A stretch of DNA of 64,000 bases from the NCBI GenBank assembly GCA_964637115.1, contig CAZWVL010000004.1, positions 9,879-73,878 on the forward strand. The letters run 5' to 3'. Source of the stretch: an uncultured Methanosarcinales archaeon (GTDB lineage Archaea; Nanobdellota; Nanobdellia; Woesearchaeales; ARS49). The notes below the pieces were generated by a model. It was not told the origin of the DNA. It did not search any database and was given only the letters and a program-made list of their open reading frames with translations. Positions 1 to 57,684 of this stretch are shown here, piece after piece (within the stretch, counting starts at the first letter, position 1; each line of letters starts with the position of its first letter). Made by a program: the position numbers and the translations under genes.

Positions 1-362
1 CTTGTTTGAGCAGTTTCTTCTGTTTTTCTTGAAGTTCTCTTATTCGTGCACCGGCTTGTTGATAATGCATTTCATATATGCGCTTATAAAACACTTCCAC
101 GCGCGGGTCACCAACGTTTGGCCCGGAAAATGTCTTCGTTTTATATTCGCTTACTCCAAGTTCAACCCGAAAACAAAAAGCAGAAATGCAAAAAATAGGA
201 TCGCAATCACCAAGTCTGGAATCTTTGCTTACCTGAACAGATATGTCTTGATAGGTACCGGTATAAGTAAACTCATTGTTAAAACAATTGTGCCCGTACC
301 TCCATTCTTTCACTTTCTTCCCAAGCTTCAGAAGCTCGTCCAAGGAGAGTTCGTCGGTCATT
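1..362 (-). CDS. MTD-leader family protein, copy C (N-terminal part only; gene runs off the window edge)
   Basis: The reverse complement of 300..362 encodes MTDELSLDELLKLGKKVKEW... in frame. It shares a ~60-nt near-identical 5' segment with the genes at 358..798 and 795..1445. It overlaps the start of the upstream gene by a few nt. Confidence 0.5.
300..362 (-). repeat. conserved ~60-nt 5' cassette of the MTD-leader family (copy C)
   Basis: It matches 737..798 and 1383..1445 at over 90% nucleotide identity while the downstream bodies are unrelated. Confidence 0.6.
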
Positions 363-798
363 TCAGCATTCTCTTGACATACCTAAGTAATTCCTGAGGG
401 CCTTTTTTGAGTAATTTATTTTGCTCTTTGTCAATTTCTCTTTGTTTCATTTCAAATTGTTTGCAATACGCTGTCTCCACACTTTCATAAAATAGATAAA
501 CCTTTTCATCACCTTTGAATTTTTTAGGTACAGCGTGCCGATAACGCTTGCTCTCACCTAATTTGACATGACGACAAGAAGCAGAAATACGGTATACTGT
601 TGTACCCAAGGCACATCCATGAAATGCAGTAATGATTATGCCATTGTATAATCCGGAATATTTAGTATAATTTAAACCCGGATCATCTAAATCGGACAGT
701 TTACCTAAAGATGCATCAACTACATCTGAATTTCTGCTCCATTCTTTCACTTTCTTCCCAAGCTTCAGAAGTTCGTCCAAGGAGAGTTGATCGGTCAT
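358..798 (-). CDS. MTD-leader family protein, copy A (146 aa), function unknown
   Basis: ORF with the N-terminus MTDQLSLDELLKLGKKVKEW, which is conserved at nucleotide level with its neighbours. The C-terminal body is unrelated to the paralogs. It is operon-packed, with 4-nt overlaps. Confidence 0.55.
   Translation of the reverse strand: MTDQLSLDELLKLGKKVKEWSRNSDVVDASLGKLSDLDDPGLNYTKYSGLYNGIIITAFHGCALGTTVYRISASCRHVKLGESKRYRHAVPKKFKGDEKVYLFYESVETAYCKQFEMKQREIDKEQNKLLKKGPQELLRYVKRMLK
737..798 (-). repeat. conserved ~60-nt 5' cassette of the MTD-leader family (copy A)
   Basis: ccattctttcactttcttcccaagcttcagaagttcgtccaaggagagttgatcggtcat. Confidence 0.6.
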
Positions 799-1445
799 TG
801 TGCCAATTCTCTCACCATTTTTAGAGTTGCTCTTCTGTGTTCTTCTGTTTTCTGTATTAGCTTTTCGTTTTCCTTTTTTACAAAATCATAGAATTTTTCT
901 ACTGCACCATTATTGCATCTATGGCCGACAATAGTGACTGTGTCAATTTCAGTCCTAACACTATAATAATCATCTCGATATCCGATTTTAAAGGCAACTC
1001 CTTGCAGAGCTCCCATGAAAATGCCAGTATATTCTCTGTCAGCTCCACGCTTCCATGATTCATACCATTTATCGCATTTTTTTCCAAGATTGATGATGTT
1101 ATCAACACTTGTTTTTGCATCAATTTTGAGAATTTCCCACGCACGTCCGCGTGCTACCATTTCGTGTTTTATTTTTACAGAATGAAAGAAGGCTTCAATT
1201 TCAGTATTGCTCTTGTTTTCTTCATAGGTATCGCGTTCATACTTTCCTAGCTCTGTTTTTTCTAATCTTGCCGAAATTTTATAAACGAAGTGTTCCATCC
1301 AATTTGAAGGTGCTAAATCCGTCCTAAAATCTATTCCTTCGTAATTTCCCTCATAACGAAGGCCTTCACGTATGCGGCTTATCTTCCATTCTTTCACTTT
1401 ATTCCCAAGCTTCAGAAGTTCGTCTAAAGAGAGTTGGTCGGTCAT
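795..1445 (-). CDS. MTD-leader family protein, copy B (216 aa), function unknown
   Basis: It has the same 20-aa N-terminal leader followed by a divergent body. Its start overlaps the stop of the upstream SBP gene (ATGA). Confidence 0.55.
   Translation of the reverse strand: MTDQLSLDELLKLGNKVKEWKISRIREGLRYEGNYEGIDFRTDLAPSNWMEHFVYKISARLEKTELGKYERDTYEENKSNTEIEAFFHSVKIKHEMVARGRAWEILKIDAKTSVDNIINLGKKCDKWYESWKRGADREYTGIFMGALQGVAFKIGYRDDYYSVRTEIDTVTIVGHRCNNGAVEKFYDFVKKENEKLIQKTEEHRRATLKMVRELAQ
1383..1445 (-). repeat. conserved ~60-nt 5' cassette of the MTD-leader family (copy B)
   Basis: ccattctttcactttattcccaagcttcagaagttcgtctaaagagagttggtcggtcat. Confidence 0.6.
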
Positions 1446-2512
1446 CTGTACAACTCTTCGAATTTGCCATTCTTAACCTGCTTCATTACTTGTTCTTTCT
1501 GCGTAATTCTGCCATCATTGTCAAACGTGATAATGTTAGAAACGCCAGCATAGTCCTTGATTGAGTGCAAATACTGGGAAATCTCGTCTGGTGTTGTTTT
1601 TCCATCACGCAAAGCCGTAGCAACGAGCATAACTGCGTCATATGCATACGCTGCAGAAGGCGAAGGTGGCAATCCAAACTTCTCAGTGTATTTCTTTGCA
1701 AATTCTATTTCACCGGGTCCTTTCGCAGGATACGGATAAATTGTTCCTTCAATTGATGGATATGCTTGGAGAAGCACCGGATTATCAGTTCCAGAGCTTG
1801 AGTACAACGGAATCTTGAGTCCGAGCTCTTGTGCTTGTTTGCTGAATGCACCTTGGCTTGGATAGAACGCAAAAGGTGCGTACACCGCATTAACATTCAA
1901 TTCTTTAATTTGTGAAATCACTGTCTTGAAGTCAGTTTCATCTGGATTTGTTGGGAATTCCTTGACAATTGTCAGTCCTTTTGCTTCATTGACAAAGTTA
2001 TCACGCATTGACTGCGACCAGTCATTCAGACTGTAAACGATAGCTACTTTCTTTATGCCGTTTTTCTTCATATATTGTATTTCGGGCATCACTTCTGCCC
2101 GCTCCGTGATCCATACGTCAAAGAAATACGGCGATGGTTGTGGAACAACGCCTGCTGATGGTGATATAATCAGGACTTTTTTCTCGTTTGCAATAGGGCT
2201 TGCTACCTGGCCAAACCAGGTTGGTCCAACAACGACTTTAAGATTATCCACTTCAGCAAGTTTGTTGATTGCTGTAGCCGTACCCTTGAAATCAGTTTTA
2301 CTATCCTCAACAATTAACTCAAGAGGCCTTCCATTTATGCCGTTGTGAGCATTAATGTCATCAGCCGCCAGCAGTGCGCCGTTTTTCTCTCCTTCTCCCC
2401 AGAACGAAGCCGGGCCGGTGAGATGGAATACACCGCCTATTTTGACTGTGTCAGGAGTTGTTTGTATGCAGGCTGCGAGCAATAACAAAATGATAACTGC
2501 AATCTTTTTCAT
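1442..2512 (-). CDS. ABC transporter substrate-binding lipoprotein, LivJ/LivK (PBP type I) family
   Basis: N-terminus MKKIAVIILLLLAAC (signal plus lipobox Cys). It has the PBP1 signature GxxxPLTGPxAxxGE...DDINAxGGINGRP...ED. Confidence 0.85.
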   Translation of the reverse strand: MKKIAVIILLLLAACIQTTPDTVKIGGVFHLTGPASFWGEGEKNGALLAADDINAHNGINGRPLELIVEDSKTDFKGTATAINKLAEVDNLKVVVGPTWFGQVASPIANEKKVLIISPSAGVVPQPSPYFFDVWITERAEVMPEIQYMKKNGIKKVAIVYSLNDWSQSMRDNFVNEAKGLTIVKEFPTNPDETDFKTVISQIKELNVNAVYAPFAFYPSQGAFSKQAQELGLKIPLYSSSGTDNPVLLQAYPSIEGTIYPYPAKGPGEIEFAKKYTEKFGLPPSPSAAYAYDAVMLVATALRDGKTTPDEISQYLHSIKDYAGVSNIITFDNDGRITQKEQVMKQVKNGKFEELYR

Positions 2513-3636
2513 TTCTGCACCATCTCAAACTTGCCATCTTGCACAACTTTCAGCTTGAATCCAGTCTGAACATTGCCTTTTTCATCAAAGCTGAAATTTC
2601 CCATGAAGCCATCATAGTTCTTAACGTTGTTTAGCAGCCAATCATGCACTTTTTCGCCATCATTGCCAACTGCACGTATCGCATCAACCAAAATTCTGAC
2701 AGTGTCATATGTTGCTGCTGTGTGGAACGGCACTGCCGGGTCTTTTCCATAGCGTTCTTTGTACTTTGCAAGGAACGCTTTGAATTCAAGTTTGTCAGCG
2801 TCGTAATTTGGATCGTAGAAATACACGCCTTCAAGTGCATCGCCTGCTATTGTTTTTGAATTCTCATTGGCAACAGTCGTGAATGTGGTAAACATAGGCG
2901 TTTTAAAGCTGAGTTCGCGTGATTGTTTGATGAAGTGTGCTCCTGTTGTGCCTAGCTGGCTTAAAATCAGTATTGCATCTGGTTTTTCTCGTTTTACTTT
3001 CAAGAGTGTTGTTCTGAAGTCTTTTGTGTCTGGAATGAATTCTTCATCCAGAACTATTTCTCCGCCTAATTTTTCAAATTCTTTCTTGAAATGGTCGCGT
3101 ATGTCAATTGTGTACTCTCTTTGTTCCGTAATTATGGCTGCTTTGGTAAAATTAAACTTCTCGATAAAGTCACGCGCTGGCTGTATTCCAGCTTGTACAT
3201 CTGCATTTCCTGTTCTGAAGACGTATTCTCCTGCATTGTCAATATTGCTTCCGCCTGTAACGGGTGTGATATACACAACTTTTGCTTCATTGACGTATGG
3301 CGCAGCTGCCATTGTGTCGTCGCTGCACGTGCCGCCAATGATTACTTTGACATCATCTACTTCAACTAATTTCTTGATTGCTGTAAGGCCCTGATTTTGC
3401 CCGCATTTTGCATCTTCAACAACAAATTCAATATTCAAATCAGACGCGAGTTCTTCTGCTGCAAGTTTCGCACTATCCACAATATTCTGTCCAAGAGAAG
3501 CAAAATCTCCTGAAAGAATTGTTGAGATGCCGATTTTCATTAAGGGTTTTTCTACTGGTTTTGTTTCTGTTTGTATTTCTGGTTGTGCACACGCTGCCAA
3601 TAGTAACAGCATAATAATCGCAAATACTATTTTCAT
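2509..3636 (-). CDS. ABC transporter substrate-binding lipoprotein, LivK family (paralog 2)
   Basis: MKIVFAIIMLLLLAAC lipobox; contains KIGISTILSGDFASLG. The likely start is the internal ATG (ATGA overlap with the upstream stop); the tool ORF extends to 3678. Confidence 0.85.
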   Translation of the reverse strand: MKIVFAIIMLLLLAACAQPEIQTETKPVEKPLMKIGISTILSGDFASLGQNIVDSAKLAAEELASDLNIEFVVEDAKCGQNQGLTAIKKLVEVDDVKVIIGGTCSDDTMAAAPYVNEAKVVYITPVTGGSNIDNAGEYVFRTGNADVQAGIQPARDFIEKFNFTKAAIITEQREYTIDIRDHFKKEFEKLGGEIVLDEEFIPDTKDFRTTLLKVKREKPDAILILSQLGTTGAHFIKQSRELSFKTPMFTTFTTVANENSKTIAGDALEGVYFYDPNYDADKLEFKAFLAKYKERYGKDPAVPFHTAATYDTVRILVDAIRAVGNDGEKVHDWLLNNVKNYDGFMGNFSFDEKGNVQTGFKLKVVQDGKFEMVQK

Positions 3637-4046
3637 TTCCGCCCTTCTGCAATTAAGCATTCTTTTACATTCTTGCACAGTTCGTCAAGCTCCTCTTGAT
3701 TTTGCACAGCCATACTGCAAGTGTATGTGACCTTTACACAATCGGGTTCTCGATCTATCCACATTTCTTGAGAACGAGAAGTATTATGTCCTGCTTTTTC
3801 AAGGAAGATACGGCGGTTTCCAATCAGCAGGCATTCGTTAGCAAGTGCTTCTTCAAAATTTCGCTTGTTGATTACTCGATACATTCCGAGCGTTATGGAT
3901 CGGCGCTCGTCAAAATACAATAACTCAACATTATTATATGGTGTTGAAATTACAAAATGTTCATTAAAGTTATTATGGCGCTTTCCAACATTCTCCCACT
4001 TGCCCCAGAATTTTTCCATGCTTTTTTCAAGGTTGATTTCTGTCAT
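3633..4046 (-). CDS. hypothetical cytoplasmic protein (137 aa), paralog of 4043..4417
   Basis: ORF with no TM segment. It shares MTEI- at the N-terminus, a YxNVxEL core and a C-terminal LC+xxK...AE..RK with its neighbour. Confidence 0.45.
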   Translation of the reverse strand: MTEINLEKSMEKFWGKWENVGKRHNNFNEHFVISTPYNNVELLYFDERRSITLGMYRVINKRNFEEALANECLLIGNRRIFLEKAGHNTSRSQEMWIDREPDCVKVTYTCSMAVQNQEELDELCKNVKECLIAEGRK

Positions 4047-4417
4047 TTTCTTTCCTCCGCCATCACTTTTTTGATGTCTCTGCAGAGTTTTGTTAGGTAA
4101 GTTTGAGAAGAAACTTGAATGTGATACACATTCCTTAACCCACTACGATCATTAAATCCCATCGTATATAAGTTTCTGATATCATATCCACGTTTTCTAA
4201 GAACATTAATACGATCCAATTCCTTACCTAAATCATGTTTTTTAAATAGAACTATAACAGATAGTTCTAATTCTCTGACGTTATCATAGTAACAAATAGT
4301 TGTACGGGCGTTTATGTCATATGCACCAGATCCCTGAATATACCCATGGAAATGTTTCCTAAACACGTCCTTTATAGATTCGTCAAAGCTGATTTCTGTC
4401 ATCCCGTTTTTCTCCAC
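4043..4417 (-). CDS. hypothetical cytoplasmic protein (124 aa), paralog of 3633..4046
   Basis: Tandem paralog, 4-nt overlaps, embedded between SBP genes. Confidence 0.45.
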   Translation of the reverse strand: MEKNGMTEISFDESIKDVFRKHFHGYIQGSGAYDINARTTICYYDNVRELELSVIVLFKKHDLGKELDRINVLRKRGYDIRNLYTMGFNDRSGLRNVYHIQVSSQTYLTKLCRDIKKVMAEERK

Positions 4418-5487
4418 ATGCCGTTCTCAAATTTCGTCAACATGATCTCGCGGTCTATAATCTGATCACCATTATAGCTCACCACACCACTTACTCCGTT
4501 CATGGTCAAGTTGCGCATGTTGTTGGCAACACACAGTGTTTCCGTGCACCCTTCGTATGCTTTTGCCATTGTCATTGCGTCATCATACAATACTGCGCTT
4601 CCTCGCAAGAAATAAGCCTGCTTCTTGTCTTCCAGTTTTTTCTTGAACGAAACAAAAATAGGGTCAGTGCTCGCTTCATCAACTGCAATATCCGCGCCCA
4701 GAGCATCTTTCAGCACTTCTGGATAATCACGGCTGTTCTCAGAGCTTCCGCACCCAAAACTCTGGAAAGGTATTAGGATTTGAGCGGTAATTCCAAGCTC
4801 TTTTATCTGCTTATACGCGTTCGGGCAATCAGGTGCATACATTGCCAAGATGATAGCAGTGCTCCCTGAATTTTTTATCTTTGTGAATTGTGTTCTGAAA
4901 TCAATGCTTCCCTGATCGTACATCTCAGCTGCGGCAAGTTCGCCAATCTGCTCAACACCCTGCTTGCACAGCAGCGTAAACTCGGCATTTGTGCCGAACA
5001 GCGCAATTCGCTTGTTCTTAGCTTGCGTATACAATTTCTTGCACGCTTCAAAGCCGTCAAGCTGGTCTTTGAACACATAAGTTTTATTCGCTGAAAACGA
5101 ATTGACAACATTTACATAAATGAACGGCACTTTTGCATCTTCAGCTAATGGCGCTATAATGCCAGTGGGCATAACTGTGATGGTAAAAAGTGCATCGACG
5201 TTATCCACGTTGATTAGCTTCGCAGTCGCCGGTGCTACTTGCTTTTTATCGCTTGCAAAATCCTCATACAGCACTTCAACAGGCTTTCCGTTTATTCCAC
5301 CCGCGGCATTAATGTCTTCCACTGCTAGGTCTATTCCATATTTTGAAAACTCGCCATAAAACGCATTCGAGCCCGTTAATGGCAAAACTGCGCCGAATTT
5401 GTATGGTTTTATTTCAGCTTTTTCTACTTTAGCGCATGCTGATAGGAACAATAATGCTACAATTGTAAAGACCAAGAATTGTTTCAT
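4399..5487 (-). CDS. ABC transporter substrate-binding lipoprotein, LivK family (paralog 3)
   Basis: MKQFLVFTIVALLFLSAC lipobox; GAVLPLTGSNAFYGE; DINAAGGINGKPVEV. Confidence 0.85.
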   Translation of the reverse strand: MKQFLVFTIVALLFLSACAKVEKAEIKPYKFGAVLPLTGSNAFYGEFSKYGIDLAVEDINAAGGINGKPVEVLYEDFASDKKQVAPATAKLINVDNVDALFTITVMPTGIIAPLAEDAKVPFIYVNVVNSFSANKTYVFKDQLDGFEACKKLYTQAKNKRIALFGTNAEFTLLCKQGVEQIGELAAAEMYDQGSIDFRTQFTKIKNSGSTAIILAMYAPDCPNAYKQIKELGITAQILIPFQSFGCGSSENSRDYPEVLKDALGADIAVDEASTDPIFVSFKKKLEDKKQAYFLRGSAVLYDDAMTMAKAYEGCTETLCVANNMRNLTMNGVSGVVSYNGDQIIDREIMLTKFENGMWRKTG

Positions 5488-5489
5488 CT

Positions 5490-6566
5490 TTACTCTCCAG
5501 CAAACAATGTCTTTTTGCCGTTCTCAATCTTGTAAATCGGCACTGGTCTTGATGCGTCTCCGTTCGTATTAAAGTAAGAAGAACCTTGCAGCCATTGTCT
5601 TACTGTTTCAGTATCTGTCGTTCTTGTTTCTCTATAAGCCTGTGCTAACACCTTGACAGCCATATGAGCAGCGTCAGATGAAATGCCTGGCTCCTTGCCG
5701 TACTTTTCTGTGTACTTCTTTACGAATTCTTCATCGTATGGAAGCATGTCTATATAGTATGAAATCGCAAAATCATCTGTAGTAATCGCATTTCTTGTTA
5801 ATGCTTCACCAAAGTTGCCTTCTGCGTTGAGCAATATGGCATCAAACTGTTGCTCTTTCATTTTTTTTACTATGTGTGCGGTGTCAATCGGGCCAACTGC
5901 GAGAAAAACAACGTCTGGCTTGAGTGATTTTGCTTTGGTTACTTGTGTTGCGAAGTCATTGCCGTCAAATGCTGTGCCGACAAAGTCTGCAGTCAATTCT
6001 CCGCCGTTTTCTTTCATTAATCGTTCAAAATTTTCTTTGTATGAATCTGACCAGGACCCAGGGGCTCTGAAAATTACAGCATGCTTAATTTTTTCCTGTT
6101 TAATCACCAGTCTATACGCTCTGACATGATTTGGAACTGGTGGCCAGGTTCTGAATAAATACTGGCTTAAGCGGGAATTGTCTTTTGTATTTCCGGTTGA
6201 CGGGTTTATTAGTATTAATTTGGCAGCGTCAGCAATCGGAGCCATTGGTTCAAGCGAGTAGTCCCACGTACCGCCTATAATCGCGTCAATTTTGTCAATT
6301 TCCATCAGTTTTGTAAGTGCAGTAACCGCTCTTTTTCCGTCCGTGCCGTCGTCTTCGTAAATAACAACAATTTTCTTGCCATTTATGCCTCCTGCAGCAT
6401 TTATTTCTTCTACGGCAAGGTCCATTCCGTTTCTCGAGCTTTCACCATAGAATGCTGCAACGCCTGTTAAGCTCAAAACTGCGCCTATCTTGATTTGTTC
6501 GCTTTGCTGAGGCGTGCAAGCTGCTAAAAGCAGCAAAGCTGCTAAAAGAACAAAAAATCCTTTCAT
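5490..6566 (-). CDS. ABC transporter substrate-binding lipoprotein, LivK family (paralog 4)
   Basis: MKGFFVLLAALLLLAAC lipobox; IGAVLSLTGVAAFYGE; EINAAGGINGKKIVV. Start trimmed to the internal ATG. Confidence 0.85.
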   Translation of the reverse strand: MKGFFVLLAALLLLAACTPQQSEQIKIGAVLSLTGVAAFYGESSRNGMDLAVEEINAAGGINGKKIVVIYEDDGTDGKRAVTALTKLMEIDKIDAIIGGTWDYSLEPMAPIADAAKLILINPSTGNTKDNSRLSQYLFRTWPPVPNHVRAYRLVIKQEKIKHAVIFRAPGSWSDSYKENFERLMKENGGELTADFVGTAFDGNDFATQVTKAKSLKPDVVFLAVGPIDTAHIVKKMKEQQFDAILLNAEGNFGEALTRNAITTDDFAISYYIDMLPYDEEFVKKYTEKYGKEPGISSDAAHMAVKVLAQAYRETRTTDTETVRQWLQGSSYFNTNGDASRPVPIYKIENGKKTLFAGE

Positions 6567-6567
6567 T

Positions 6568-7650
6568 TTAATCTTCCAGCGGAACAAATCCGCCATTCTT
6601 GACCTGCATCAGTATGAGCGGTCTGTCAACATCGCCTTTTGAATCAAAGCTGAACGTTCCGCTGACTCCATTGTAGTTCTGCGTTGCGTACAGCTGTTGT
6701 TTTATGCAGTCGGTATCATCGTTGCATTGCTCAACGATTTTTGATATCAATTTCAACGCATCATACGCATTGGCTACAAACCACGAGAAGTTCGGATCGT
6801 TGTACACGTTTGCATATTTCTGCTTGAATTCTTGTGCTTGCTGCGTGCCGGGATTAAATCCTGACGTGTAGACTATTCCTTCTCCTGCGCCTTGGGCAGC
6901 AGTTAAGAATGCTTTATCCTCCATTGCTGGTGTTGTCAAGAATGGTCCTGTATATCCCATTTCTCGGGCGATTTTCAGGTTAATCCCTATGTCTTTTGCA
7001 AATCCTGACGTATAGATGACTTCAGGTTTGGAATCGATTACTTTGCTAATCTGGGTGCGTGCATCGCCTGAGTCTTTGTCATATAGCTCTTGTGCGACAA
7101 GTGTTCCTCCTAATTCTTGGTAGCGTGTGGCAAATGGATTCGCATAAGCAAGCGGCCCTTCTGCATTTGCATTTAGCATTGCTGCTTTTTTCCAGCCTTT
7201 TGAAATGGCATATTCAGCCATTGTTTTGCCATGGCCAGTCGCTGTTTCACGGTTTCTGAATGTGTAATCGCCTGCATCGGTAATCTTTCCTGTAACTGCA
7301 GTTGAGCTCAAAATTATGACTTTCTTTTGTTCTGCAAGTGGCGCGACTGCAAGAACTGAGCCTGAAAGGACAGGGCCGATGATTATCTTCACTCCGTCAA
7401 CATCAGTGAGCTTGTTGAACGCAGTAACTGCTACTTTTGTGTCGCTCTGCTCATCTTCGAATATAACGTCGACGTTGCTGACTTCTTTGAGCGCGAGATT
7501 GATTCCTTTGGTAATTCCTTCTCCATAATTTCCTTGCGCGCCGGTTAACGTCAAAATAATGCCGACTTTGACTTTTTCTGTTGGTTGTTCAACTTGTACG
7601 CATGCGCCCAAAAGCAACAATGCTAATATGACAAAGATTATTTTTTTCAT
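6568..7650 (-). CDS. ABC transporter substrate-binding lipoprotein, LivK family (paralog 5, most diverged)
   Basis: MKKIIFVILALLLLGAC lipobox; VGIILTLTGAQGNYGE. Confidence 0.8.
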   Translation of the reverse strand: MKKIIFVILALLLLGACVQVEQPTEKVKVGIILTLTGAQGNYGEGITKGINLALKEVSNVDVIFEDEQSDTKVAVTAFNKLTDVDGVKIIIGPVLSGSVLAVAPLAEQKKVIILSSTAVTGKITDAGDYTFRNRETATGHGKTMAEYAISKGWKKAAMLNANAEGPLAYANPFATRYQELGGTLVAQELYDKDSGDARTQISKVIDSKPEVIYTSGFAKDIGINLKIAREMGYTGPFLTTPAMEDKAFLTAAQGAGEGIVYTSGFNPGTQQAQEFKQKYANVYNDPNFSWFVANAYDALKLISKIVEQCNDDTDCIKQQLYATQNYNGVSGTFSFDSKGDVDRPLILMQVKNGGFVPLED

Positions 7651-7651
7651 T

Positions 7652-8770
7652 TTATACCTCCACGTTTACCCATTTACCTTCGTTGTACTGAACAATACGA
7701 ATGGGACGAGTGGCATAATGATTACCGTCGAATGCCACGTGTCCTGCAACACCAGTGTAATCGGTTTCTGCGAGCTTGTCGCGTACGCATTCCTTGGTTA
7801 TTTCAGTGCACTTGCCTGCCGCAATAGAAATCTCGTGCATATTATCATAGGCGACTGCTGCGTCTACAGGACCGACAAGTTTTTTGCCAATGCGTGTTTC
7901 AATTTTCTGCATAAATTCAGCGAGTTTTGGTGTTGGCTGTGCTGGGTTGGCTGCTTGGTCTGCGGCATAAGCGTCTTTGAGAATGCGGTTTTTGTCCAGG
8001 TCCTTGACTGCCATTGGGTTTGCAGATAATGCAGTGCCGATGGGCAGGTATAATTGTGGAACAAAGTCCAGCTCAAGCATTTGTTTGTAAATCATGTTGC
8101 AGTCTGGGGGCCAGCAGACAAGAACAACAGCATCTGGTTGTATGCTCTTGAACTTGGTGACAGAAGTTCGCGCATCAGGGTCATTGCTGAGCTTCATTTC
8201 ATTTGCAACAATAGTACCGCCCTTTGTGACAAATTCTTTTTTGAGTGTTTCAAGACAGTCTGCGCTGAAGTCAGCGTCATTTCCGAGGAAGGCAAGGCGT
8301 TTGTGGCCGTTTTTCAGTGCCGTTTGTCCTAATTGTTTGCATTCATTTGCAGCATCACGCAAATCGCTAAATATCCAGGTGTTCTTTCTCGCATAGGTTG
8401 GGACACCAGTAAACCCGAACAATGGGACTGCATTTTGTTCCGCTACTGCGCTTGCGCCGCCTGTAACAGGCGTTGTTATCGAATAGATAAAGTCGACGCC
8501 ATCCTGCTGTATTAGTTTTGTAGTCGCAGTAGTGCCTTTTGCAGCATTATCTGCATCTTCTAGAATGGTTTGAATCTGCCTGCCGTTGATGCCGCCTGCT
8601 GCATTGATTTCTTCCTTTGCCATTTCAAGGGCTGAAACGACATATTCGCCAATCCAGGCATTTGGCCCGGTCATGGGCGCCACAATGCCGACTTTGTATG
8701 GCTGTGATTCTGTTTGTACGCACGCTGCCAAAAGCAGCAGCGTCAAAATTATCATTATTGTTTGTTTCAT
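7652..8770 (-). CDS. ABC transporter substrate-binding lipoprotein, LivK family (paralog 6)
   Basis: MKQTIMIILTLLLLAAC lipobox; VGIVAPMTGPNAWIGE; EINAAGGINGRQIQ. Confidence 0.85.
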   Translation of the reverse strand: MKQTIMIILTLLLLAACVQTESQPYKVGIVAPMTGPNAWIGEYVVSALEMAKEEINAAGGINGRQIQTILEDADNAAKGTTATTKLIQQDGVDFIYSITTPVTGGASAVAEQNAVPLFGFTGVPTYARKNTWIFSDLRDAANECKQLGQTALKNGHKRLAFLGNDADFSADCLETLKKEFVTKGGTIVANEMKLSNDPDARTSVTKFKSIQPDAVVLVCWPPDCNMIYKQMLELDFVPQLYLPIGTALSANPMAVKDLDKNRILKDAYAADQAANPAQPTPKLAEFMQKIETRIGKKLVGPVDAAVAYDNMHEISIAAGKCTEITKECVRDKLAETDYTGVAGHVAFDGNHYATRPIRIVQYNEGKWVNVEV

Positions 8771-8779
8771 TTTTCCACC

Positions 8780-9820
8780 TCAAAACTCCTTCTTCCACTC
8801 GAGCATGACAGCATGGCTGTCATCCCAGTGATTTGTAATTGGATTTTCGTTCAGATCTGCTTTGTACCAGATACGCAATCCGCTGTTGCCGAGCTCAAAT
8901 CGTAAACCGAGCATTGCACCATTGGTATCAGTTGCAAAGTTTCTTCGATATTCGATGCTCGGCGTAATGTCATTCAAGAATGCAAAGTCACCTATGTTGA
9001 GTGCGCCGCGGATTGATGCTTTTTTATCATGGGTGTAGGTTGCATCAATGCCGTAATCTCCTGTATCTTTGTCTACATAAATTTCGGCGTTGCCGAAGCT
9101 GAATGTTTTGAAGGATAATGGGAATGTTAAATCGCCCAAGACGCTAAGGGTGTTATGGTCCTCGTCATCAACGCCGAACACTTTTGCACGTTGTGCCCAC
9201 TGCTTTGAGCCGAGAGTAATACGGGCTTCTCTGAAATCGTTTTTACCGATTTTAATGTAGCTCCAGAGTGCTGCACCGTCTAATTTCAAGCTGTATGAAG
9301 CGTTTGCTTCCCAGTTGTTTCCGTTGTTAATATGTCCACCGGCGTATACTAAAGAGTCTCCAATTTCTGCTGTTAGCACACCGCTGGAATTGCCTTTGCT
9401 GTCAAATGCTGCTTCTAAGCCGAAATTGTCATCAAGTTTTAATCCGCCGAGCCAGATTACTTTGTGTTCATTGTTTTCTCTGTCTAACACATCAAATTCC
9501 AGTCCTGCAAATCCTTGTTTGGTATTGTATGAGAGGTATGCTTTGCCTTGGTCTAATGTTGCAGTATCGCGCCAGCCGAGATTAAGCCTGAAATTATCAT
9601 AGTAAAGGTCTGCACCTATTGCGGAATTGTCCTTGGAAGTTTCACCCATGACTTTGTTTCCTGCATACGAAACAATAGTCTGAGCTGCTTCATCGTGCCA
9701 TGTTTCTGCGTATACGCGTGTTTCCATTTTGACTGGTTTCACGTCCTGCGCAAACGCTCCAGTATAGAGCGCCAGCGCGGAGAGTGATGTCATCACTGCA
9801 TGTTTGAGTCTCTGTAACAT
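8780..9820 (-). CDS. secreted beta-rich protein with bacterial outer-membrane beta-barrel (porin-like) character
   Basis: Signal peptide MLQRLKHAVMTSLSALALYTGAFA|QD. About 320 aa of alternating-hydrophobic amphipathic strands with G, Y, N and D in the turns. The C-terminus is ...AVMLEWKKEF (terminal aromatic). It is the first gene of the minus-strand SBP operon. The tool ORF uses GTG at 9829. Confidence 0.5.
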   Translation of the reverse strand: MLQRLKHAVMTSLSALALYTGAFAQDVKPVKMETRVYAETWHDEAAQTIVSYAGNKVMGETSKDNSAIGADLYYDNFRLNLGWRDTATLDQGKAYLSYNTKQGFAGLEFDVLDRENNEHKVIWLGGLKLDDNFGLEAAFDSKGNSSGVLTAEIGDSLVYAGGHINNGNNWEANASYSLKLDGAALWSYIKIGKNDFREARITLGSKQWAQRAKVFGVDDEDHNTLSVLGDLTFPLSFKTFSFGNAEIYVDKDTGDYGIDATYTHDKKASIRGALNIGDFAFLNDITPSIEYRRNFATDTNGAMLGLRFELGNSGLRIWYKADLNENPITNHWDDSHAVMLEWKKEF

Positions 9821-9880
9821 TTCCACCACCTATGTTCAGTAGTGACATGAAACTAATTTATACTTTTTTATTAAACTATA

Positions 9881-16608: not shown

Positions 16609-16674
16609 TATGAAAAAAGAATATATTTCCGATAAGTTGTCACTTGTAGAGTAAGACAAGATTTGGGTGGTAAA

Positions 16675-17094
16675 ATGAACAAAAGAAACGATAACGGTCA
16701 TGTCAAATATTCACCGGATGCTTCATTAGTTAACAAGCTCAAGGTTGGAGATCATTATACTGAGATTTGGCAAGGTTTGCCCGATCACCCATTCGAGCCT
16801 TCTGCAACAACAGGTGGCAAGTCAGGCTTAAAGTATGAAACAAATGATAAATACGTCTGGGTTACGCCAAATACTGCTCGTGCACTGGAACAAAATCCGG
16901 ATGAAATTCTGTATGCCAGTATTAAGAAATCTAAAGACAAAGAGTATTGCGCCAGATGGGTAGAATCCATCAGCGGAACTTCCTTTGGAAATACTCTTGA
17001 AAGTGCTATTTCTCGAGCTCAAGAACTGAATATCGAAGAGTTACATAACAGAATCGAGAAGGATCGAAGAAAGAAATTGGAGGCCAAAAAATGA
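16675..17094 (+). CDS. hypothetical protein (~139 aa) leading the plus-strand SBP operon
   Basis: ORF whose stop overlaps the ATG of the following SBP gene (ATGA). The tool start is TTG at 16663. Confidence 0.4.
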   Translation: MNKRNDNGHVKYSPDASLVNKLKVGDHYTEIWQGLPDHPFEPSATTGGKSGLKYETNDKYVWVTPNTARALEQNPDEILYASIKKSKDKEYCARWVESISGTSFGNTLESAISRAQELNIEELHNRIEKDRRKKLEAKK

Positions 17095-18176
17095 AAACAG
17101 CAATAATTGCAATTCTAGTGCTGTTTCTAGCAGCATGCGTGCAAATAGAAGAAACAAAGCCATTCAAATTAGGTGCACCACTGCCTTTGACTGGCTCAAA
17201 TGCGTTCTATGGCGACTTTACAAAGTATGGTATAGAGCTTGCTGTTGAAGACATTAACAAAGCAGGCGGAATCAATGGTAGAACAGTCCAGGTTATCTAT
17301 GAAGATACTGCTGGAGATAAGACAAAAGCCACAACCGCGGCACAGAAGCTGATTCACATCGATGGTGTGGACGCTCTTATTACCTCCACGACTCCGATGA
17401 GCGGTGCGATTTCTCCGGTTGCTGAAGAGAACCGCATTCCGTTAATTTATGCTTCTGCAACAAATTCATTCACTATAAACAAAACGTATGTTTTCAAAGA
17501 TTATACAGATGCAGCCGGCATCTGTGAGCTTCTGATGAAACAGGTGAAAAAGGATGGGCATGAAAAAGTGGCCGTCTTTGGTACTGATGCTGAATTTACT
17601 CAGCTTTGTAAGAAAGGAGCAGAAAAAGTTGGAAAACTCAACTCATTTGAGGTTTATCCTGGCGGCGAAACTGATTTCAAAACACAGTTTGCCAAGATTA
17701 AGAATGCTGAAAACACTGCTTTGATTCTTTCGGTGTTCGCTGGAGATTGCCCGCATGCGTACAAGCAGATTCGCGAACTTGGGTTGAAGGCAAAATTGTA
17801 CACAGCTTTCCAGAGTTTTGCGTGCGGCAGTGCCGACAACACAAAAGCAAATGCCGACTTGCTTGAGGGCGCATATGGTGCTGATGTTGCTTTAGATGAA
17901 GAAAGCGATGATCCTGATTTTCTCGCTTTTAAGAAGCGCCTTGATGAAAGAGGCTGGACTACGCAAATTCGCGGAAGCGCCATTATGTACGATAGCACAA
18001 TGGAATTCGCAAAAGCCTTCCAGGATTGCCAAGATGCTCTTTGTGTAGCCAATAATCTCAGAGCTCTGCAGATGAATGGAATTTCTGGACACATCAGTTA
18101 TGGTGGAGACCAGATTGTTGAGCGCGAAATAATGTTGGTGAAATACGAAAACGGCAAATGGAGGAAAGTACAATGA
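17091..18176 (+). CDS. ABC transporter substrate-binding lipoprotein, LivK family (paralog 7)
   Basis: MKTAIIAILVLFLAAC lipobox; LGAPLPLTGSNAFYGD; DINKAGGINGRTVQV. It is the closest paralog to 4399..5487. Confidence 0.85.
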   Translation: MKTAIIAILVLFLAACVQIEETKPFKLGAPLPLTGSNAFYGDFTKYGIELAVEDINKAGGINGRTVQVIYEDTAGDKTKATTAAQKLIHIDGVDALITSTTPMSGAISPVAEENRIPLIYASATNSFTINKTYVFKDYTDAAGICELLMKQVKKDGHEKVAVFGTDAEFTQLCKKGAEKVGKLNSFEVYPGGETDFKTQFAKIKNAENTALILSVFAGDCPHAYKQIRELGLKAKLYTAFQSFACGSADNTKANADLLEGAYGADVALDEESDDPDFLAFKKRLDERGWTTQIRGSAIMYDSTMEFAKAFQDCQDALCVANNLRALQMNGISGHISYGGDQIVEREIMLVKYENGKWRKVQ

Positions 18177-19267
18177 AAACGGCAATATTCACAATAATTG
18201 CATTGCTGCTTTTGGCAGCGTGCGCAACGCAAGAATCAGTACAAACAACGCCTATTGCAAAAGAACCGGCAGTTGTCAAGATTGGGGTAACAGTGCCATT
18301 GACTGGTGATGTTGCATTCTTAGGAGAAGCAACGCGAAATTCCCTCGAATTGGCATTAAAAGAAGTGCAGGGAACAAAATACAAGTACGAGCTTGTGTTT
18401 GAAGATGACAAGCTTGATGCAAAACTGGCTTCCACAACTGCAACTAAATTGATTCAAGTTGACAATGTTGATGCAATCATCAGTTTGAGCTCTGGCACGG
18501 GGAATGTAGTTACCCCTCTTGCCGAGCAGAATAAGGTAATTCACTTTGGCATTGCTTCTGATGCAAATGTTGCAAAAGGAATGTTCAATTTCATCCATTG
18601 GACGCCGCCTGATGAGGAAGCTCGTTTATGGGTGCAAAAAGCACAGGAACATGGCTATAATCGCGTCGCAATTATTGTATTGCAGCATCCAGGTGCAATA
18701 GCAGTGGTTGATGCTGCAAAGAAACACGCAAAAGGTACCGACATCGAACTACATGAGGAGTTCTTTAATCCGGGCGAGAAGGATTTCAGAACAGTTCTGG
18801 TCAGGTCCAAGCAATTTAATCCTGATGCTTATATGCTCATGGCGTTCTCTCCTGAACTTGACATATTGCACAAGCAGTTGAAGGAATTAGGCATTAAGGC
18901 ACCTTTGACATCCATCGAGGCATTCGAACTTAGCAATGACCCTTCTCAGTTTGAAGGTCACTGGTATGTCAACGCTGCAGACCCGACAGGCGCATTTGCT
19001 GACAAGTATAAGGCTGCGTACAACAAAGAGCCGGTATTTGGCGGACCAAATGCATACGACATCTTCAAGATGATCGTGAAAGGCTTTGAGGATTCAGGCA
19101 AAGATGCATCTGTAAAACCTTCACCTGAAGAAGTTGCTGCTGCACTTATGCAGATAAAGGACTTCGATGGTGCACTGGGCAAATTGACTGTCGGCGAAGA
19201 TGGTATTGTCTGGAGCCCGGCAGTTGTCAGAACGATTCTGAACGGCAAGCCGGTGACTATCAAATAG
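18173..19267 (+). CDS. ABC transporter substrate-binding lipoprotein, LivK family (paralog 8)
   Basis: MKTAIFTIIALLLLAAC lipobox; IGVTVPLTGDVAFLGE. ATGA overlap with the preceding SBP gene. Confidence 0.85.
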   Translation: MKTAIFTIIALLLLAACATQESVQTTPIAKEPAVVKIGVTVPLTGDVAFLGEATRNSLELALKEVQGTKYKYELVFEDDKLDAKLASTTATKLIQVDNVDAIISLSSGTGNVVTPLAEQNKVIHFGIASDANVAKGMFNFIHWTPPDEEARLWVQKAQEHGYNRVAIIVLQHPGAIAVVDAAKKHAKGTDIELHEEFFNPGEKDFRTVLVRSKQFNPDAYMLMAFSPELDILHKQLKELGIKAPLTSIEAFELSNDPSQFEGHWYVNAADPTGAFADKYKAAYNKEPVFGGPNAYDIFKMIVKGFEDSGKDASVKPSPEEVAAALMQIKDFDGALGKLTVGEDGIVWSPAVVRTILNGKPVTIK

Positions 19268-19292: not shown

Positions 19293-19679
19293 ATGACTGA
19301 CGAACTTTCTTTGGAAGAAGTAATTGCTTTGGGATGTAAAGTAAGACCATGGAGCAAGAACAAAGACGAAGAAGATGAAGATGGCTATGTCGGTTGTTAC
19401 AAAGGAGTTCATATAAGCGTTTCCCGTCATCGATTGTTTATTGGAGAAGACTCTTTTGTATCATACAATCTGAAGATTGAATATAAAGGCACAACAATAG
19501 GAGAATTTTTTTATCAGGCGTTTGACCATTCATCTGCAAGAAATAGAGATGATGTTATGAAGTTCTATAAATTTGCCAAGTCACAAAATGAACAAGAATA
19601 TATCGCAAGGGTATGTGATCGTAACAGAGAAAAGCGATTTGAAGGAACCGTGAACTATGTGCGTGGTTTGTTAAAATAA
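19293..19679 (+). CDS. MTD-leader family protein, copy D (128 aa)
   Basis: MTDELSLEEVIALGCKVRPW. The same N-terminal leader family as 358..1445, with a diverged nucleotide sequence. It lies between the last SBP gene and livH. Confidence 0.5.
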   Translation: MTDELSLEEVIALGCKVRPWSKNKDEEDEDGYVGCYKGVHISVSRHRLFIGEDSFVSYNLKIEYKGTTIGEFFYQAFDHSSARNRDDVMKFYKFAKSQNEQEYIARVCDRNREKRFEGTVNYVRGLLK

Positions 19680-46474: not shown

Positions 46475-46987
46475 TTACTTGTAGGCCGCAACATCCTTGT
46501 AAATCGGCCCTTCAGAAGTGAGCTGGCTTTCTATTAACTTAAATTCTTTTATGTCAAAAGTAAGTTGTTCAACTTTCAGATTTTTGACATTTTCTGCAAA
46601 TTTTTTGTCTTGAACTTCTTTGACACGGGCAAGAGTTATGTGTGCTTTGAAATCTTTTTCTTTTGGAAAATTTAGCGCTTCATCAATATTTTTCTGAAGT
46701 TCGCAAATGATGTCTCTTGGTTCTATGCCTATCCATACAACTCGCGGCGTGCCGTTTTCTGGAAATACTCCTATACCGTCTAATTTTGCAGTAAATGACT
46801 TGAATGATATTTTCGTAAGTCGTTTTTTTACCTCATCTGCCTGAACGGGCGTGATTTCGCCCAGGAACTTGAGTGTCAAATGAAAACTTTTGGTGAATGT
46901 TAGTTTGGCGCCGATTAATTTTTTCTGTAGAGTGAGAAAATAGTCGTGTACTGCCTGCGATACATCAAACGCGATAAATAATCTCAT
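46475..46987 (-). CDS. thpR: RNA 2',3'-cyclic phosphodiesterase (2H phosphoesterase, ThpR/LigT)
   Basis: Two H-x-T-x motifs: FHLTLKFLG and AHITLARV. Start MRLFIAFD. The 84-aa Q/K-rich N-terminal extension in the tool ORF is a frame artefact over the TRAM-tail repeats. Confidence 0.7.
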   Translation of the reverse strand: MRLFIAFDVSQAVHDYFLTLQKKLIGAKLTFTKSFHLTLKFLGEITPVQADEVKKRLTKISFKSFTAKLDGIGVFPENGTPRVVWIGIEPRDIICELQKNIDEALNFPKEKDFKAHITLARVKEVQDKKFAENVKNLKVEQLTFDIKEFKLIESQLTSEGPIYKDVAAYK

Positions 46988-47018
46988 TGTAAAGAAAAAA
47001 GATAATAAAAATAAAAAC
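46988..47018 (-). terminator. oligo-T tract after the TRAM gene (archaeal-style terminator) doubling as an AT-rich promoter for thpR
   Basis: Minus strand reads GTTTTTATTTTTATTATCTTTTTTCTTT immediately after the TRAM stop. thpR's ATG follows ~30 nt later, which suggests a leaderless transcript. Confidence 0.35.
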
Positions 47019-47465
47019 TTATTGTTCGTCAGATGGTTCTTCAGCTGGTTCCTCGGCTGGTGCTTCCTCTGCAGGAGCTTCTTCGCCAAAGCTTTCAGAG
47101 TCCTCTGAAGATTCTGCAGGTGCTTCTTCTGCTGGAGCTTCTGCAGGCGCTTCTGCTGGTGCTTCTTCGCCAAAGCTTTCAGATTCTCCTGCTGGAGCTT
47201 CTGCTGCTGGTGCCGTGCCTTGTCCGACGACTTCTGCAAAACCGACTTTGCGCAACACTTTTGTTACGCGAATTTTGATTTGCTGTCCTTCTTTGACGCC
47301 CGGAACGAACAACACGAAGCCATTTTTCTTGGCTATGCCGTCGCCTTTTTCGCCAACTGCTTCTATGGTGACGTCTAATTCGTCACCAACTTTGACTGGT
47401 GGGGTTTGCATCCCCATGCCTCCGCCTTGTGGTCGGAAGCCTCCTGATCTTCTATCTCCGTACAT
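47019..47465 (-). CDS. TRAM-domain protein with an unusual acidic (APAEE)n C-terminal tail
   Basis: VKVGDELDVTIEAVGEKGDGIAKKNGFVLFVPGVKEGQQIKIRVTKVLRKVGFAEVV is the stand-alone archaeal TRAM fold. It has a Gly/Arg-rich N-terminus and a ~55-aa tail of EAPAE repeats. Confidence 0.7.
   Translation of the reverse strand: MYGDRRSGGFRPQGGGMGMQTPPVKVGDELDVTIEAVGEKGDGIAKKNGFVLFVPGVKEGQQIKIRVTKVLRKVGFAEVVGQGTAPAAEAPAGESESFGEEAPAEAPAEAPAEEAPAESSEDSESFGEEAPAEEAPAEEPAEEPSDEQ
47040..47220 (-). repeat. approximately 87-nt tandem duplication inside the TRAM tail coding region
   Basis: ...gcttcttcgccaaagctttcaga... occurs twice (near 47074 and 47161), flanked by gctggagcttctgc repeats. It encodes SESFGEEAPAE(E)APAE twice. 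Confidence 0.6.
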
Positions 47466-52118: not shown

Positions 52119-52658
52119 TTACGGCTTGCACGCGCTTAGGTCTGTTTTTGTGTCTATAGTAAAGCTCGGGGCAAACCATATGTGTCCGATATTTTCAAGA
52201 ACTAATCCTTTTAGTGTCAGGTCTTGTTTGACGGGCAGGATTGCAATTGCGTGGATGTTCTTGCCCTCCAAATAGAGTTCATAATTGTTTTTTGGGATTT
52301 TTGTGACGGGCGATTGTGCATTGTAAGCATCTATGTATTTGTCGAGTTCTTGGTTGAATCTTGGTGTTAGGCCTGTTGTGCACGCAGTAAGTACGTCAGG
52401 CATAGAAAGTTCTGCTGATTTTTCAAGATATGTTATGATGTTTTCTTTTACATATGGCGCTTTTAACAGCGCCATTTCAGTATCTCCCAGCGTTGTCTTG
52501 TTTTCCGCAACTTTTGTGGTGAGCTGCAAGAACAGGAACGAAAGTGCCATAACTACCACAACTATCATGCTGAGTGCATAATCTAGTCCGCGCTTCGAAA
52601 AACGAAGTTTTTTGAAGCTAGAAAATGCCGTGCATTTTCTTTGTTTGTTCATCCCCAT
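52119..52658 (-). CDS. class III signal peptide (archaeal type IV pilin-like) protein
   Basis: N-terminus ...KLRFSKRG|LDYALSMIVVVVMALSFLF (basic, then Gly, then a hydrophobic helix). Its 5' coding region carries the conserved palindromic motif. Confidence 0.55.
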   Translation of the reverse strand: MGMNKQRKCTAFSSFKKLRFSKRGLDYALSMIVVVVMALSFLFLQLTTKVAENKTTLGDTEMALLKAPYVKENIITYLEKSAELSMPDVLTACTTGLTPRFNQELDKYIDAYNAQSPVTKIPKNNYELYLEGKNIHAIAILPVKQDLTLKGLVLENIGHIWFAPSFTIDTKTDLSACKP

Positions 52659-52660: not shown

Positions 52661-53164
52661 CACCTTCATGGTCAGCTTGAATTTTATTGCCTTGCCTGGT
52701 TTTACCGGCAGGTATGCTTCTTGGCTTGTGTCTTGAAGAACGTTAAGTCCAATTGCTTTTATGAGCCGCCAGACAGGATCGACAGCTATTGCAAGACTCC
52801 AACTGGCAATTACGTGCAGTGGTTCATTGCTTGTAACTGAGAGCGTGCAGTCTTTTGTCGAAGTGCAGCTGGCACTGTAGCTTCCTTTTGGCAGCGCAAT
52901 ATAATTTTTTGCATAGTTTTCAATTATTGTTGCGGCAGTGCTTGCATCTTTGTCGGCTATTTCTATGCCGTGTTTATCGATGAGCTCAGCAAAGAAGTTT
53001 TGTAGTTCTACATTTGCTGCTATGCTTTCTGCCTGATTTTTCTCTGCTGCCGTAATATTGTTTCCAACCCAGATGTAGAAAATGATGATTAAGATTGCTA
53101 TGATGAATATTGAAAGTATTAGTTTTGCCCCTTCCAATGCTCCGCGTTTATTTTTTGAGTTCAT
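52649..53164 (-). CDS. class III signal peptide pilin-like protein
   Basis: MNSKNKRG|ALEGAKLILSIFIIAILIIIF. Confidence 0.6.
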   Translation of the reverse strand: MNSKNKRGALEGAKLILSIFIIAILIIIFYIWVGNNITAAEKNQAESIAANVELQNFFAELIDKHGIEIADKDASTAATIIENYAKNYIALPKGSYSASCTSTKDCTLSVTSNEPLHVIASWSLAIAVDPVWRLIKAIGLNVLQDTSQEAYLPVKPGKAIKFKLTMKVKWG

Positions 53165-53657
53165 ATTTTCTTGGATAATATTCTTCTATGGTTAAATTCT
53201 GGATTGTGCCTTCTGCCATTACTTTGCGTTGTTCTATGTAAGTTTCATACTTGAATTTGGCAAGGGGTTTTGCGCGTTTGTAGAATAGTTCATCGTAAAC
53301 CGCACTTTTTCCGTCGAGTGAAACATTGTAAGTGAGAAGTTTTGTCGTGTAGAGCTTATCCAACCCAGCCAAGTTTGCAGTATAAAGGAATGGGCTTGTT
53401 TGCCCCGTGTATTCACTTGTAATCCAAAGTCTGCTTTTTATCTGTTGTGCTAGGACTGCTTGGTCTATTGATATCGGTTGCACACTGGATTCAACAAGGT
53501 TTTTTGGAATTATGACCATTGATAACGCTACACACGCAGTGAGGAATGCGTACCACGCTGCAAAAAGGAGAAGATTTCTGGGTCCATTCGCTCTCCTTGA
53601 AAAGCGTAGCTTTTCGAGGCTCGAAAATGCCGTGCATCGTTGCTTATACCACGCCAT
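53148..53657 (-). CDS. class III signal peptide pilin-like protein
   Basis: ...EKLRFSRRANGPRNLLLFAAWYAFLTACVALSMVII. Carries the conserved 5' motif. Confidence 0.5.
   Translation of the reverse strand: MAWYKQRCTAFSSLEKLRFSRRANGPRNLLLFAAWYAFLTACVALSMVIIPKNLVESSVQPISIDQAVLAQQIKSRLWITSEYTGQTSPFLYTANLAGLDKLYTTKLLTYNVSLDGKSAVYDELFYKRAKPLAKFKYETYIEQRKVMAEGTIQNLTIEEYYPRKYELKK
53590..53650 (-). promoter_or_regulatory. conserved palindrome-rich 5' coding motif, copy 2 (pilin gene 53148..53657)
   Basis: It encodes CTAFSSLEKLRFSRRA. There are two overlapping, mutually exclusive hairpins: GAAAAGC-gta-GCTTTTC and TTTTCGA-ggc-TCGAAAA. Confidence 0.4.
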
Positions 53658-57408: not shown

Positions 57409-57684
57409 TTACTGTTTTTTTCTACAGCAGATTTCTCCTGGTCTCAGGTCTTTGAATGAAGCGTAGATAACGTCGCAATCCGTGCCTACTGGTTTTCGCT
57501 CATTATCTGGCTCGCAAGTGTTTTCCGTTACGTTTGCTATGCCTCTGCTGCTTTTTGTTATTTGTTGTTGTACTACGAAGATAATTATTACAAGAACTAT
57601 GAGCCCAAGGGCTGCTATTATTATGGTGTTTAATGGCAGTCCTTGTCCTAGCCTGTTAGAATGCAGCATTCGTCGCATCTCCAT
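57409..57684 (-). CDS. small Cys-rich class III signal peptide pilin-like protein (91 aa)
   Basis: ...NRLGQG|LPLNTIIIAALGLIVLVIIIFVV, with 5 Cys in the C-terminal half. Confidence 0.55.
   Translation of the reverse strand: MEMRRMLHSNRLGQGLPLNTIIIAALGLIVLVIIIFVVQQQITKSSRGIANVTENTCEPDNERKPVGTDCDVIYASFKDLRPGEICCRKKQ

Follow-up and report, generated by a model that had tools for sequence, protein, structure and literature searches.

Tandem Genes Sharing a 60-Nucleotide Leader in a Woesearchaeota-like Archaeon Are Probably Diverged Paralogs of One Small-Protein Family

Introduction

How can consecutive genes begin with almost the same 60 nucleotides (nt) and then differ nearly everywhere else? 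The question is raised by the left end of a 64,000-nt stretch of contig CAZWVL010000004.1 (GenBank assembly GCA_964637115.1) from an uncultured archaeon; the whole stretch is referred to here as the window. Three consecutive genes on its minus strand, named A, B and C, share such a leader. An earlier reading made from the letters alone, the original prediction, proposed that these genes and a fourth one at 19293, gene D, attach a constant N-terminal targeting or docking helix to unrelated bodies in a polymorphic, cassette-switching family. The main outcome of our analysis is a correction of this proposal. In the explanation that we prefer, and to which we give as a whole a probability of about 60%, all four genes belong as diverged paralogs to a single uncharacterized family of small cytoplasmic proteins, and the N-terminal helix is the signature of this family, not a constant cassette on unrelated genes. 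For comparison we used related loci designated L001 to L005, L021 and L023. The lineage is Woesearchaeota-like: RadA is encoded in the window, and the nearest relatives of the L002 glycyl-tRNA synthetase (GlyRS) carry the name Candidatus Woesearchaeota.

Results

The bodies of the four genes were compared after removal of the leader. In a body-only blastp search, A and B shared 30% identity over 92 amino acids (aa) with a score of 43 bits, and weaker links extended to C and D. Motifs are kept along the whole alignment (Y.G.Y.GI.V, Y.ISA...V.LG, V..FY and a C-terminal LL..VR.L.K). A leaderless profile was then made from 50 distant members only, and every column up to the conserved tryptophan was cut, which avoids circularity. 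Against the leaderless bodies it scored 56 bits for D, 46 for B, 41 for A and, for the N- and C-terminal halves of C, 41 and 30. Two neighboring small open reading frames (ORFs), E and F, served as controls and reached 3 bits or less. The full family profile, run over the 64-kb window, matched exactly four genes, A to D, and five domains. The scores were 93.7 bits for A, 96 for B and 103 for D, while both halves of C matched the profile as separate domains (independent E-values of 1.5e-25 and 3.8e-19). On these profile matches, gene C is an internal duplication of the family domain. The alignment motifs, the full profile and the leaderless profile, the last on all five domains, agree that the bodies are homologous, and the idea that they are unrelated had to be abandoned.

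The genes are packed closely. Gene A (listed at 1..361, minus strand) runs past the left end of the window, so that <1-361 holds its first 120 codons; the full gene, encoding a protein of 136 aa (P0004), is found at 4107-4517 of L001, an independent Joint Genome Institute (JGI) contig that is 99.96% identical and in which a convergent substrate-binding protein (SBP) gene directly follows A. Gene B (358-798, minus strand) encodes 146 aa, including a 14-aa insertion in a variable loop just past the leader. Gene C (795-1445, minus strand) encodes 216 aa, with the two tandem family domains at 1122-1445 (N-domain) and 798-1121 (C-domain). Its start overlaps, as ATGA, the stop of a lipoprotein SBP gene of the Peripla_BP_6 type (1442-2512, minus strand; Pfam E-value 1.8e-57), which is the last SBP gene of a six-SBP operon reaching to about 9829.

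The leader copies are located, all on the minus strand, at 301..361 in A (MTDELSLDELLKLGKKVKEW, the type I nucleotide version), 738..798 in B and 1385..1445 in C (MTDQLSLDELLKLGNKVKEW), and those of A and B have a 35-nt identical run in common. As DNA they form a direct repeat of 61-63 nt present in three copies (300-362, 737-799 and 1384-1446), two of which match the reference copy at 95% and 89% identity. A degenerate 61-mer matched exactly three sites in the window, compared with none expected from 100 shuffles. Each copy constitutes the first 20 codons of a minus-strand ORF, and every start overlaps the upstream stop as ATGA. The geometry had been described well: the leader, expected to be more than 90% conserved in nucleotides, is 92-95% identical among A, B and C over nt 1-60 (25-30% over nt 61-120), and the copies, expected about 440 and 650 nt apart in direct orientation, are spaced by 437 and 647 nt, direct and in register. 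The claim that four genes begin with the same leader was correct for these three genes and wrong for D. Gene D (19293-19679, plus strand, 128 aa) lies between two SBP genes and livH/M/G/F, has its own 25-nt spacer and carries a type II leader that shares 13 of 20 residues and only 63% of the nucleotides with the trio. Judged by its sequence, D is a member of the family and not a copy of the DNA repeat.

The family is rare. A word-indexed search of 5.8 billion proteins returned only seven clusters, and a HMMER search over 1.84 billion representatives returned 61 at E ≤ 1e-3, of which 12 also passed E ≤ 1e-10. Members are about 70-220 aa long, mostly 110-150, with the exception of one repetitive protein of 634 aa, and their isoelectric points are mixed (median 8.6) and not acidic as a group. 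All 61 representatives start with L-S-L-[DE]-E-[MLI]-L-x-L-[AG]-x-K-V-x-x-W. In an alignment of 59 sequences, the mean information per column is 2.76 bits at residues 5-20 and 0.8-1.8 bits elsewhere, and the leader segment is the most conserved part among about 60 distant relatives. The leader is therefore the signature element of the family, a helix plus the first beta-strand ending in an invariant tryptophan, with S6-x-x-E9 at what we take to be the position of a helix capping box. The helix motif is found again where the second, internal domain of C begins. The original prediction was supported in so far as the locus holds several copies of one family, in which an unusually constant N-terminus precedes bodies that diverge fast.

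Searches for known relatives gave little. The family proteins have neither a signal peptide nor a membrane segment, and no hydrophobic signal was seen in their sequences. Pfam, NCBIfam, PADLOC and PHROGs produced only noise, with no match at meaningful E-values and no toxin, immunity, defense or phage family; when all 59 members were scanned, only five different single-member matches appeared, the best being DUF7061 at 1e-4. A profile search of the sequences in the PDB gave nothing below an E-value of 0.06. Patterns of the leader DNA and of the leader peptide had no match in GTDB species representatives, JGI metagenome contigs, IMG/VR or GenBank phages. We describe the family as a rare, unannotated one of Woesearchaeota-like DPANN archaea.

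A structural model was made for B alone with AlphaFold2 from the 59-sequence alignment, and a smaller alignment gave the same topology. The mean predicted local distance difference test score (pLDDT) was 89.5 and the predicted template modeling score was 0.80. The predicted topology is an N-terminal helix, a six-strand meander and two C-terminal helices. Its elements are a helix (residues 7-15), a strand (20-23), a variable loop that is poorly modeled (24-42), a meander of five strands (43-95), a long helix (98-131) and a last helix (134-145). The leader region has a pLDDT of 89-98, with residues 11-20 at 98, and the model places it with high confidence as an integral helix and the first strand of the predicted fold. 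This speaks against the proposal of a detachable targeting or docking helix, as does the recurrence of the leader motif at the second domain of C, an internal location that argues against a detachable targeting peptide. Comparison of the model with solved and viral folds revealed no significant match. The p32/MAM33 fold has a similar plan (N-terminal helix, antiparallel beta-sheet, C-terminal helices), but it scored far below significance. It has seven strands where six are predicted here, there is no sequence similarity, and the proteins described here are not acidic.

The fact that the leader is the best conserved part of the protein does not account for the likeness of its DNA. From the codon usage of 23 window genes, leaders encoding the same residues should share about six codons. 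Pairs of A-, B- and C-type leaders, drawn from the window, L002 and L003, have 12-15 of 15-17 codons in common (P 1e-3 to 1e-5). Peptide selection alone is insufficient to explain the nucleotide identity of the leader. The paralog bodies, on the other hand, have a synonymous divergence (dS) of 1.3 or are saturated, and their codon sharing is 22/33 for A-B, 11/23 for A-C and 11/30 for B-C, where chance is about 40%. The codon excess in the leaders together with the high or saturated dS of the bodies suggests a far more recent common ancestor for the type I leader DNA than for the bodies. The comparison of codons suggests that homologous recombination or partial gene conversion, limited to roughly the first 60 nt, has probably kept the leader alike. 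The same motif in D, L2_115, L2_120 and two L004 genes shares codons with the A-, B- and C-type leaders at chance level, which argues that there is no general nucleotide requirement, even for ATGA-coupled genes. Within this group, the leaders of D and L2_120 have 10 of 11 codons in common although the bodies are only 17% identical, another case in which the leader type does not follow the body.

An open frame antisense to A that includes the leader was also seen in the window (2-397, plus strand), L002 (918-1256, minus strand) and L003 (610-897, minus strand). It is open in the three genomes and is probably a by-product of codon bias.

Comparison of genomes showed that the array is variable. 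The L021 locus (GCA_964497645.1) links the other loci, since it shares the kinase, AbrB/PhoU and 353-aa genes with the window on one flank and the GlyRS, OB-fold and T2SSE genes with L002 on the other. Between these anchors, the window has six SBPs, F, E and then C-B-A, in the array order SBP-C-B-A, and L021 has four SBPs, one of them convergent, and a single family member of 100 aa. In L002 the order is a 115-aa gene, A′, C′, a 120-aa gene, SBPs and PIN/RHH, and L003 has SBP-A′. Both copy number and order thus vary between genomes, in agreement with the original prediction. The blocks of homology follow the ORFs. Between the window and L002, the C block has 91% identity along 708 nt and begins at the ATG of C, and the A block shared by L003 and L001 extends from 2 nt before the ATG through the end of the stop codon, with unrelated flanks.

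The divergence of these genes was compared with that of the anchors. For C, the nonsynonymous divergence (dN) between the window and L002 is 0.055 and the dS is 0.091. The corresponding values for A are 0.31 and 0.46 between the window and L002, and 0.17 and 0.32 between the window and L003. The anchor genes have a dS of 0.5-1.2 between the window and L021 and of 1.0-1.8 between L002 and L021. The GlyRS of L002 has a dS of 1.4-1.5 to its nearest relatives, and no database GlyRS is more than 84% identical to it. A dS of 0.09 for C against 0.5-1.8 for the anchors points to lateral exchange between lineages. These values suggest that cassette C was exchanged between the window and L002 lineages, and gene A was probably exchanged laterally as well.

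The genomic neighborhood of the family is consistent among close relatives. SBP or permease genes are found nearby in the window, L002, L003, L004 and L021. The distant members L005 and L023 have no SBP neighbors and adjoin translation-factor or NOG1 genes. The association with the 3′ end of SBP operons, which had been described as general, was confirmed for C-B-A in the window and did not extend to D (between SBP genes and livH), to the L002 array (upstream of the SBP) or to L005 and L023. The surroundings resemble Liv/HAAT-type ABC importer operons, which consist of a Peripla_BP_6 SBP, LivH/M permeases and LivG/F ATPases, in that D is inside such an operon and C-B-A is linked by translational coupling to the final SBP in an operon of several SBPs. 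To our knowledge, the canonical Liv/HAAT system has no small cytoplasmic accessory protein of this kind, and a further difference is that the distant family members are not beside transporter genes.

Other features of this neighborhood were recorded. The window contains eight Peripla_BP_6-type SBP paralogs with lipobox-like LLLAAC signals within 20 kb (1442-8770 and 17091-19267). The island between the Ser/Thr kinase and AbrB/PhoU genes and GlyRS differs strongly in SBP content in three related genomes, and the SBP adjoining the array has opposite orientations in the window and in L002. E (3633-4046, 137 aa) and F (4043-4417, about 119-124 aa), on the minus strand between SBP genes, are paralogous to each other, with 27% identity and a common MTEI... 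start and ...AE[GE]RK end, and have no family match. They were considered as remote members of the A-D family and rejected (hhalign probability 0.2, profile scores of 3 bits or less). The first gene of the six-SBP operon (8780-9829, minus strand) has a signal-peptide-like N-terminus and no Pfam or NCBIfam match. Its product ends in ...EWKKEF, which is reminiscent of outer-membrane beta-barrels and would be odd for a DPANN archaeon, and it is 61% identical to that of L021 3730-4791 with a dS of 2.2, far above the other anchor genes. Finally, a 143-aa ORF at 16663-17094 (plus strand), whose end overlaps the start of the SBP gene 17091-18176, has no family match in Pfam, NCBIfam, PADLOC or PHROGs.

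Discussion

Several other explanations for the shared leader were weighed. The leader nucleotides could be functional, as a regulatory RNA or protein site or because they are needed for re-initiation at the ATGA overlaps, and be maintained by selection on RNA or DNA. Codon sharing far above expectation and the translational coupling of A, B and C would fit, and the leader is less structured than shuffles (z up to +2.0), as would be the case for an open initiation region. However, the six type I leaders differ at 13 sites distributed 4/1/8 over codon positions 1/2/3, so that eight of the 13 are third positions and synonymous sites drift. This is the pattern of recently shared sequence drifting under protein-level selection and not that of a constrained RNA or DNA element. 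Other ATGA-coupled genes (L2_115, L2_120 and L4_116) use the motif codons at chance level, and neither conserved structure nor an Rfam family was detected. RNA folds of the leader were no more stable than shuffles (z +0.1 to +1.4), DNA folds of both strands at all three junctions were no better than shuffles (z +0.2 to +2.0), and the window had no Rfam match at the gathering threshold. We hold a nucleotide-level function to be, on the whole, unlikely. An explanation without recombination would make A, B and C recent duplicates, with bodies that diverged fast by diversifying selection or local hypermutation and a leader under purifying selection. One difficulty lies in the high or saturated dS of the bodies, since selection at the protein level cannot raise synonymous divergence. 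Codon sharing near chance in A-C and B-C also counts against it, although A-B exceeds the other pairs, and no reverse transcriptase or other mutator was found among the annotated ORFs. What it does capture is the rapid change of the bodies: orthologs have a dN/dS of 0.55-0.68, compared with about 0.08 for GlyRS, the eight codons past the leader are hypervariable even between orthologs, and codons 21-30 show 42-46% nucleotide identity between orthologs that are 80-93% identical elsewhere. Recent duplication of this kind seems quite improbable.

The model from which this work started, a constant and detachable N-terminal targeting or docking helix on unrelated effector bodies that switch as cassettes, loses one of its parts to the homology of the bodies and another to the position of the helix within the modeled fold and inside C. 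The family proteins also have no signal peptide and no match to a toxin, immunity, defense or phage family. The observations that it accommodates are an N-terminal motif that is the most conserved part and may mark an interaction surface, the variable order and copy number, and the D and L2_120 pair with its nearly identical leader codons on very different bodies. Taken as a whole, it is a poor candidate. The repeat could also have been collapsed or chimerically joined in metagenome assembly, and five short-read contigs do stop within the leader of B (at position 742 or 737, 57-62 nt in). A de Bruijn graph break is expected at that location from the 35-nt run identical in A and B, so the contig ends are not evidence of rearrangement. 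Moreover, the independent JGI assembly spans C-B-A at 99.96% identity, and the related L002 array spans several leaders. The probability of an assembly artefact is negligible.

A family of diverged paralogs with a more recently homogenized leader is the reading that we prefer, and several observations weigh against parts of it. Ongoing conversion has left no direct signature, as leaders within a genome are not clearly more alike than orthologs; the mean differences per 60 nt, from small numbers, are 5.0 within genomes, 5.25 between orthologs and 5.6 between paralogs of different genomes. The type I leaders occur in only three genomes, and the tandem gene pair of L004 is at chance with each other and has no shared-codon signal. 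The window population is clonal in every sample examined (contigs 99.9-100% identical), and no rearrangement was seen within a population. As for lateral exchange, the baseline between the window and L002 is indirect, via L021, and the two stretches share no housekeeping gene. The guess at protein function draws on gene neighborhood only, and distant members lack such a neighborhood.

The array was also compared with known kinds of system. Tandem families with partial gene conversion are similar in having direct, in-register repeats at the same end of the paralogs with a sharp identity boundary, homogenized synonymous sites next to anciently diverged remainders, and copy number and order that vary between relatives. 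They differ in that copies within a genome are here not measurably more alike than copies elsewhere, the tract coincides exactly with a conserved structural motif, and the host is a DPANN archaeon with an unannotated family. Polymorphic toxin/immunity loci have a constant N-terminal trafficking region, variable C-terminal modules and orphan cassettes downstream. The constant N-terminus, fast-diverging remainder, tandem same-strand cassettes and strain variation are reminiscent of them; however, the bodies here are homologous, the units are all whole small ORFs with a single fold, and there is no secretion signal and no toxin or immunity domain. Integron gene-cassette arrays have also been reported in archaeal metagenome-assembled genomes. 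Like these, the array consists of same-strand, promoterless small ORFs with content that varies between relatives and homology blocks bounded at ORF ends. In contrast to integrons, it has no intergenic attC, its genes overlap by ATGA, and the repeat is inside the coding region and forms no hairpin. A Pfam scan of 27 window ORFs revealed no integron integrase. We rejected an origin from an integron or a phage, as there was no attC-like hairpin, no integrase among the ORFs scanned and no IMG/VR or GenBank phage match.

The family would then have expanded here by tandem duplication inside a variable island of Liv-type SBP genes, and the common ancestor of the type I leader DNA would be much younger than that of the bodies attached to it. 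A leader-to-leader crossover would delete, duplicate or swap whole intact ORFs, because the repeats are direct and keep one register relative to the start codons, and because successive genes overlap as ATGA. Such crossovers would fit the differing gene orders and the ORF-exact homology blocks. A further step is to regard the type I leader as the recombination handle of an integrase-free cassette system of DPANN archaea. Homologous recombination at the leader would then swap whole small ORFs, delete or duplicate them and carry them between Woesearchaeota lineages. This possibility is favored by the ORF-exact homology blocks, the anomalously low dS of C and leader types that do not track bodies, but we consider it rather doubtful. 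The cassette idea of the original prediction survives only in a weaker form. Regarding function, the conserved N- and C-terminal helices may provide a scaffold or interaction surface that stays constant, with the loop and the beta-sheet as the variable part, and the family proteins would be made together with the SBPs by translational coupling. A helix scaffold with a variable sheet and loop, co-expressed with uptake lipoproteins, is a guess that we offer with low confidence.

Two features elsewhere in the window were also observed. A second shared 5′ leader is present at 52588-52625, 53590-53627 and 57946-57983, in minus-strand genes at 52119-52658, 53148-53657 and 57648-58004. The products start with M..KQRK.T.FSS.EKLRFS[KR]R..G followed by a hydrophobic stretch, and the DNA copies are 71-92% identical. 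This leader resembles the pilin-type (class III) signal peptides of archaea, in a version whose pre-sequence is long and conserved. In addition, a 12-nt periodic repeat at 47013-47168 corresponds to an acidic, Glu/Ala/Pro-rich N-terminal stretch of an ORF for a LigT-like 2′-5′ RNA ligase (46475-47239).

We conclude that the locus is a modestly interesting gene family and not a new kind of system. The analysis defines a small-protein family that is unannotated and confined to DPANN-like archaea, and its confident model has no match among solved or viral folds. It also offers a clean case, in an uncultured archaeon, of a 60-nt tract that appears far younger than the genes that carry it. A third point is the island between the conserved anchors, a hypervariable region of SBP genes and small genes in which at least one cassette seems to have been transferred from one lineage to another. 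If the leader does act in a cassette system, the array would provide a variable repertoire of fast-evolving binders expressed with nutrient-binding lipoproteins. If lateral exchange did take place, it would bear on how genome-reduced symbiotic archaea diversify proteins that are co-expressed with nutrient uptake.

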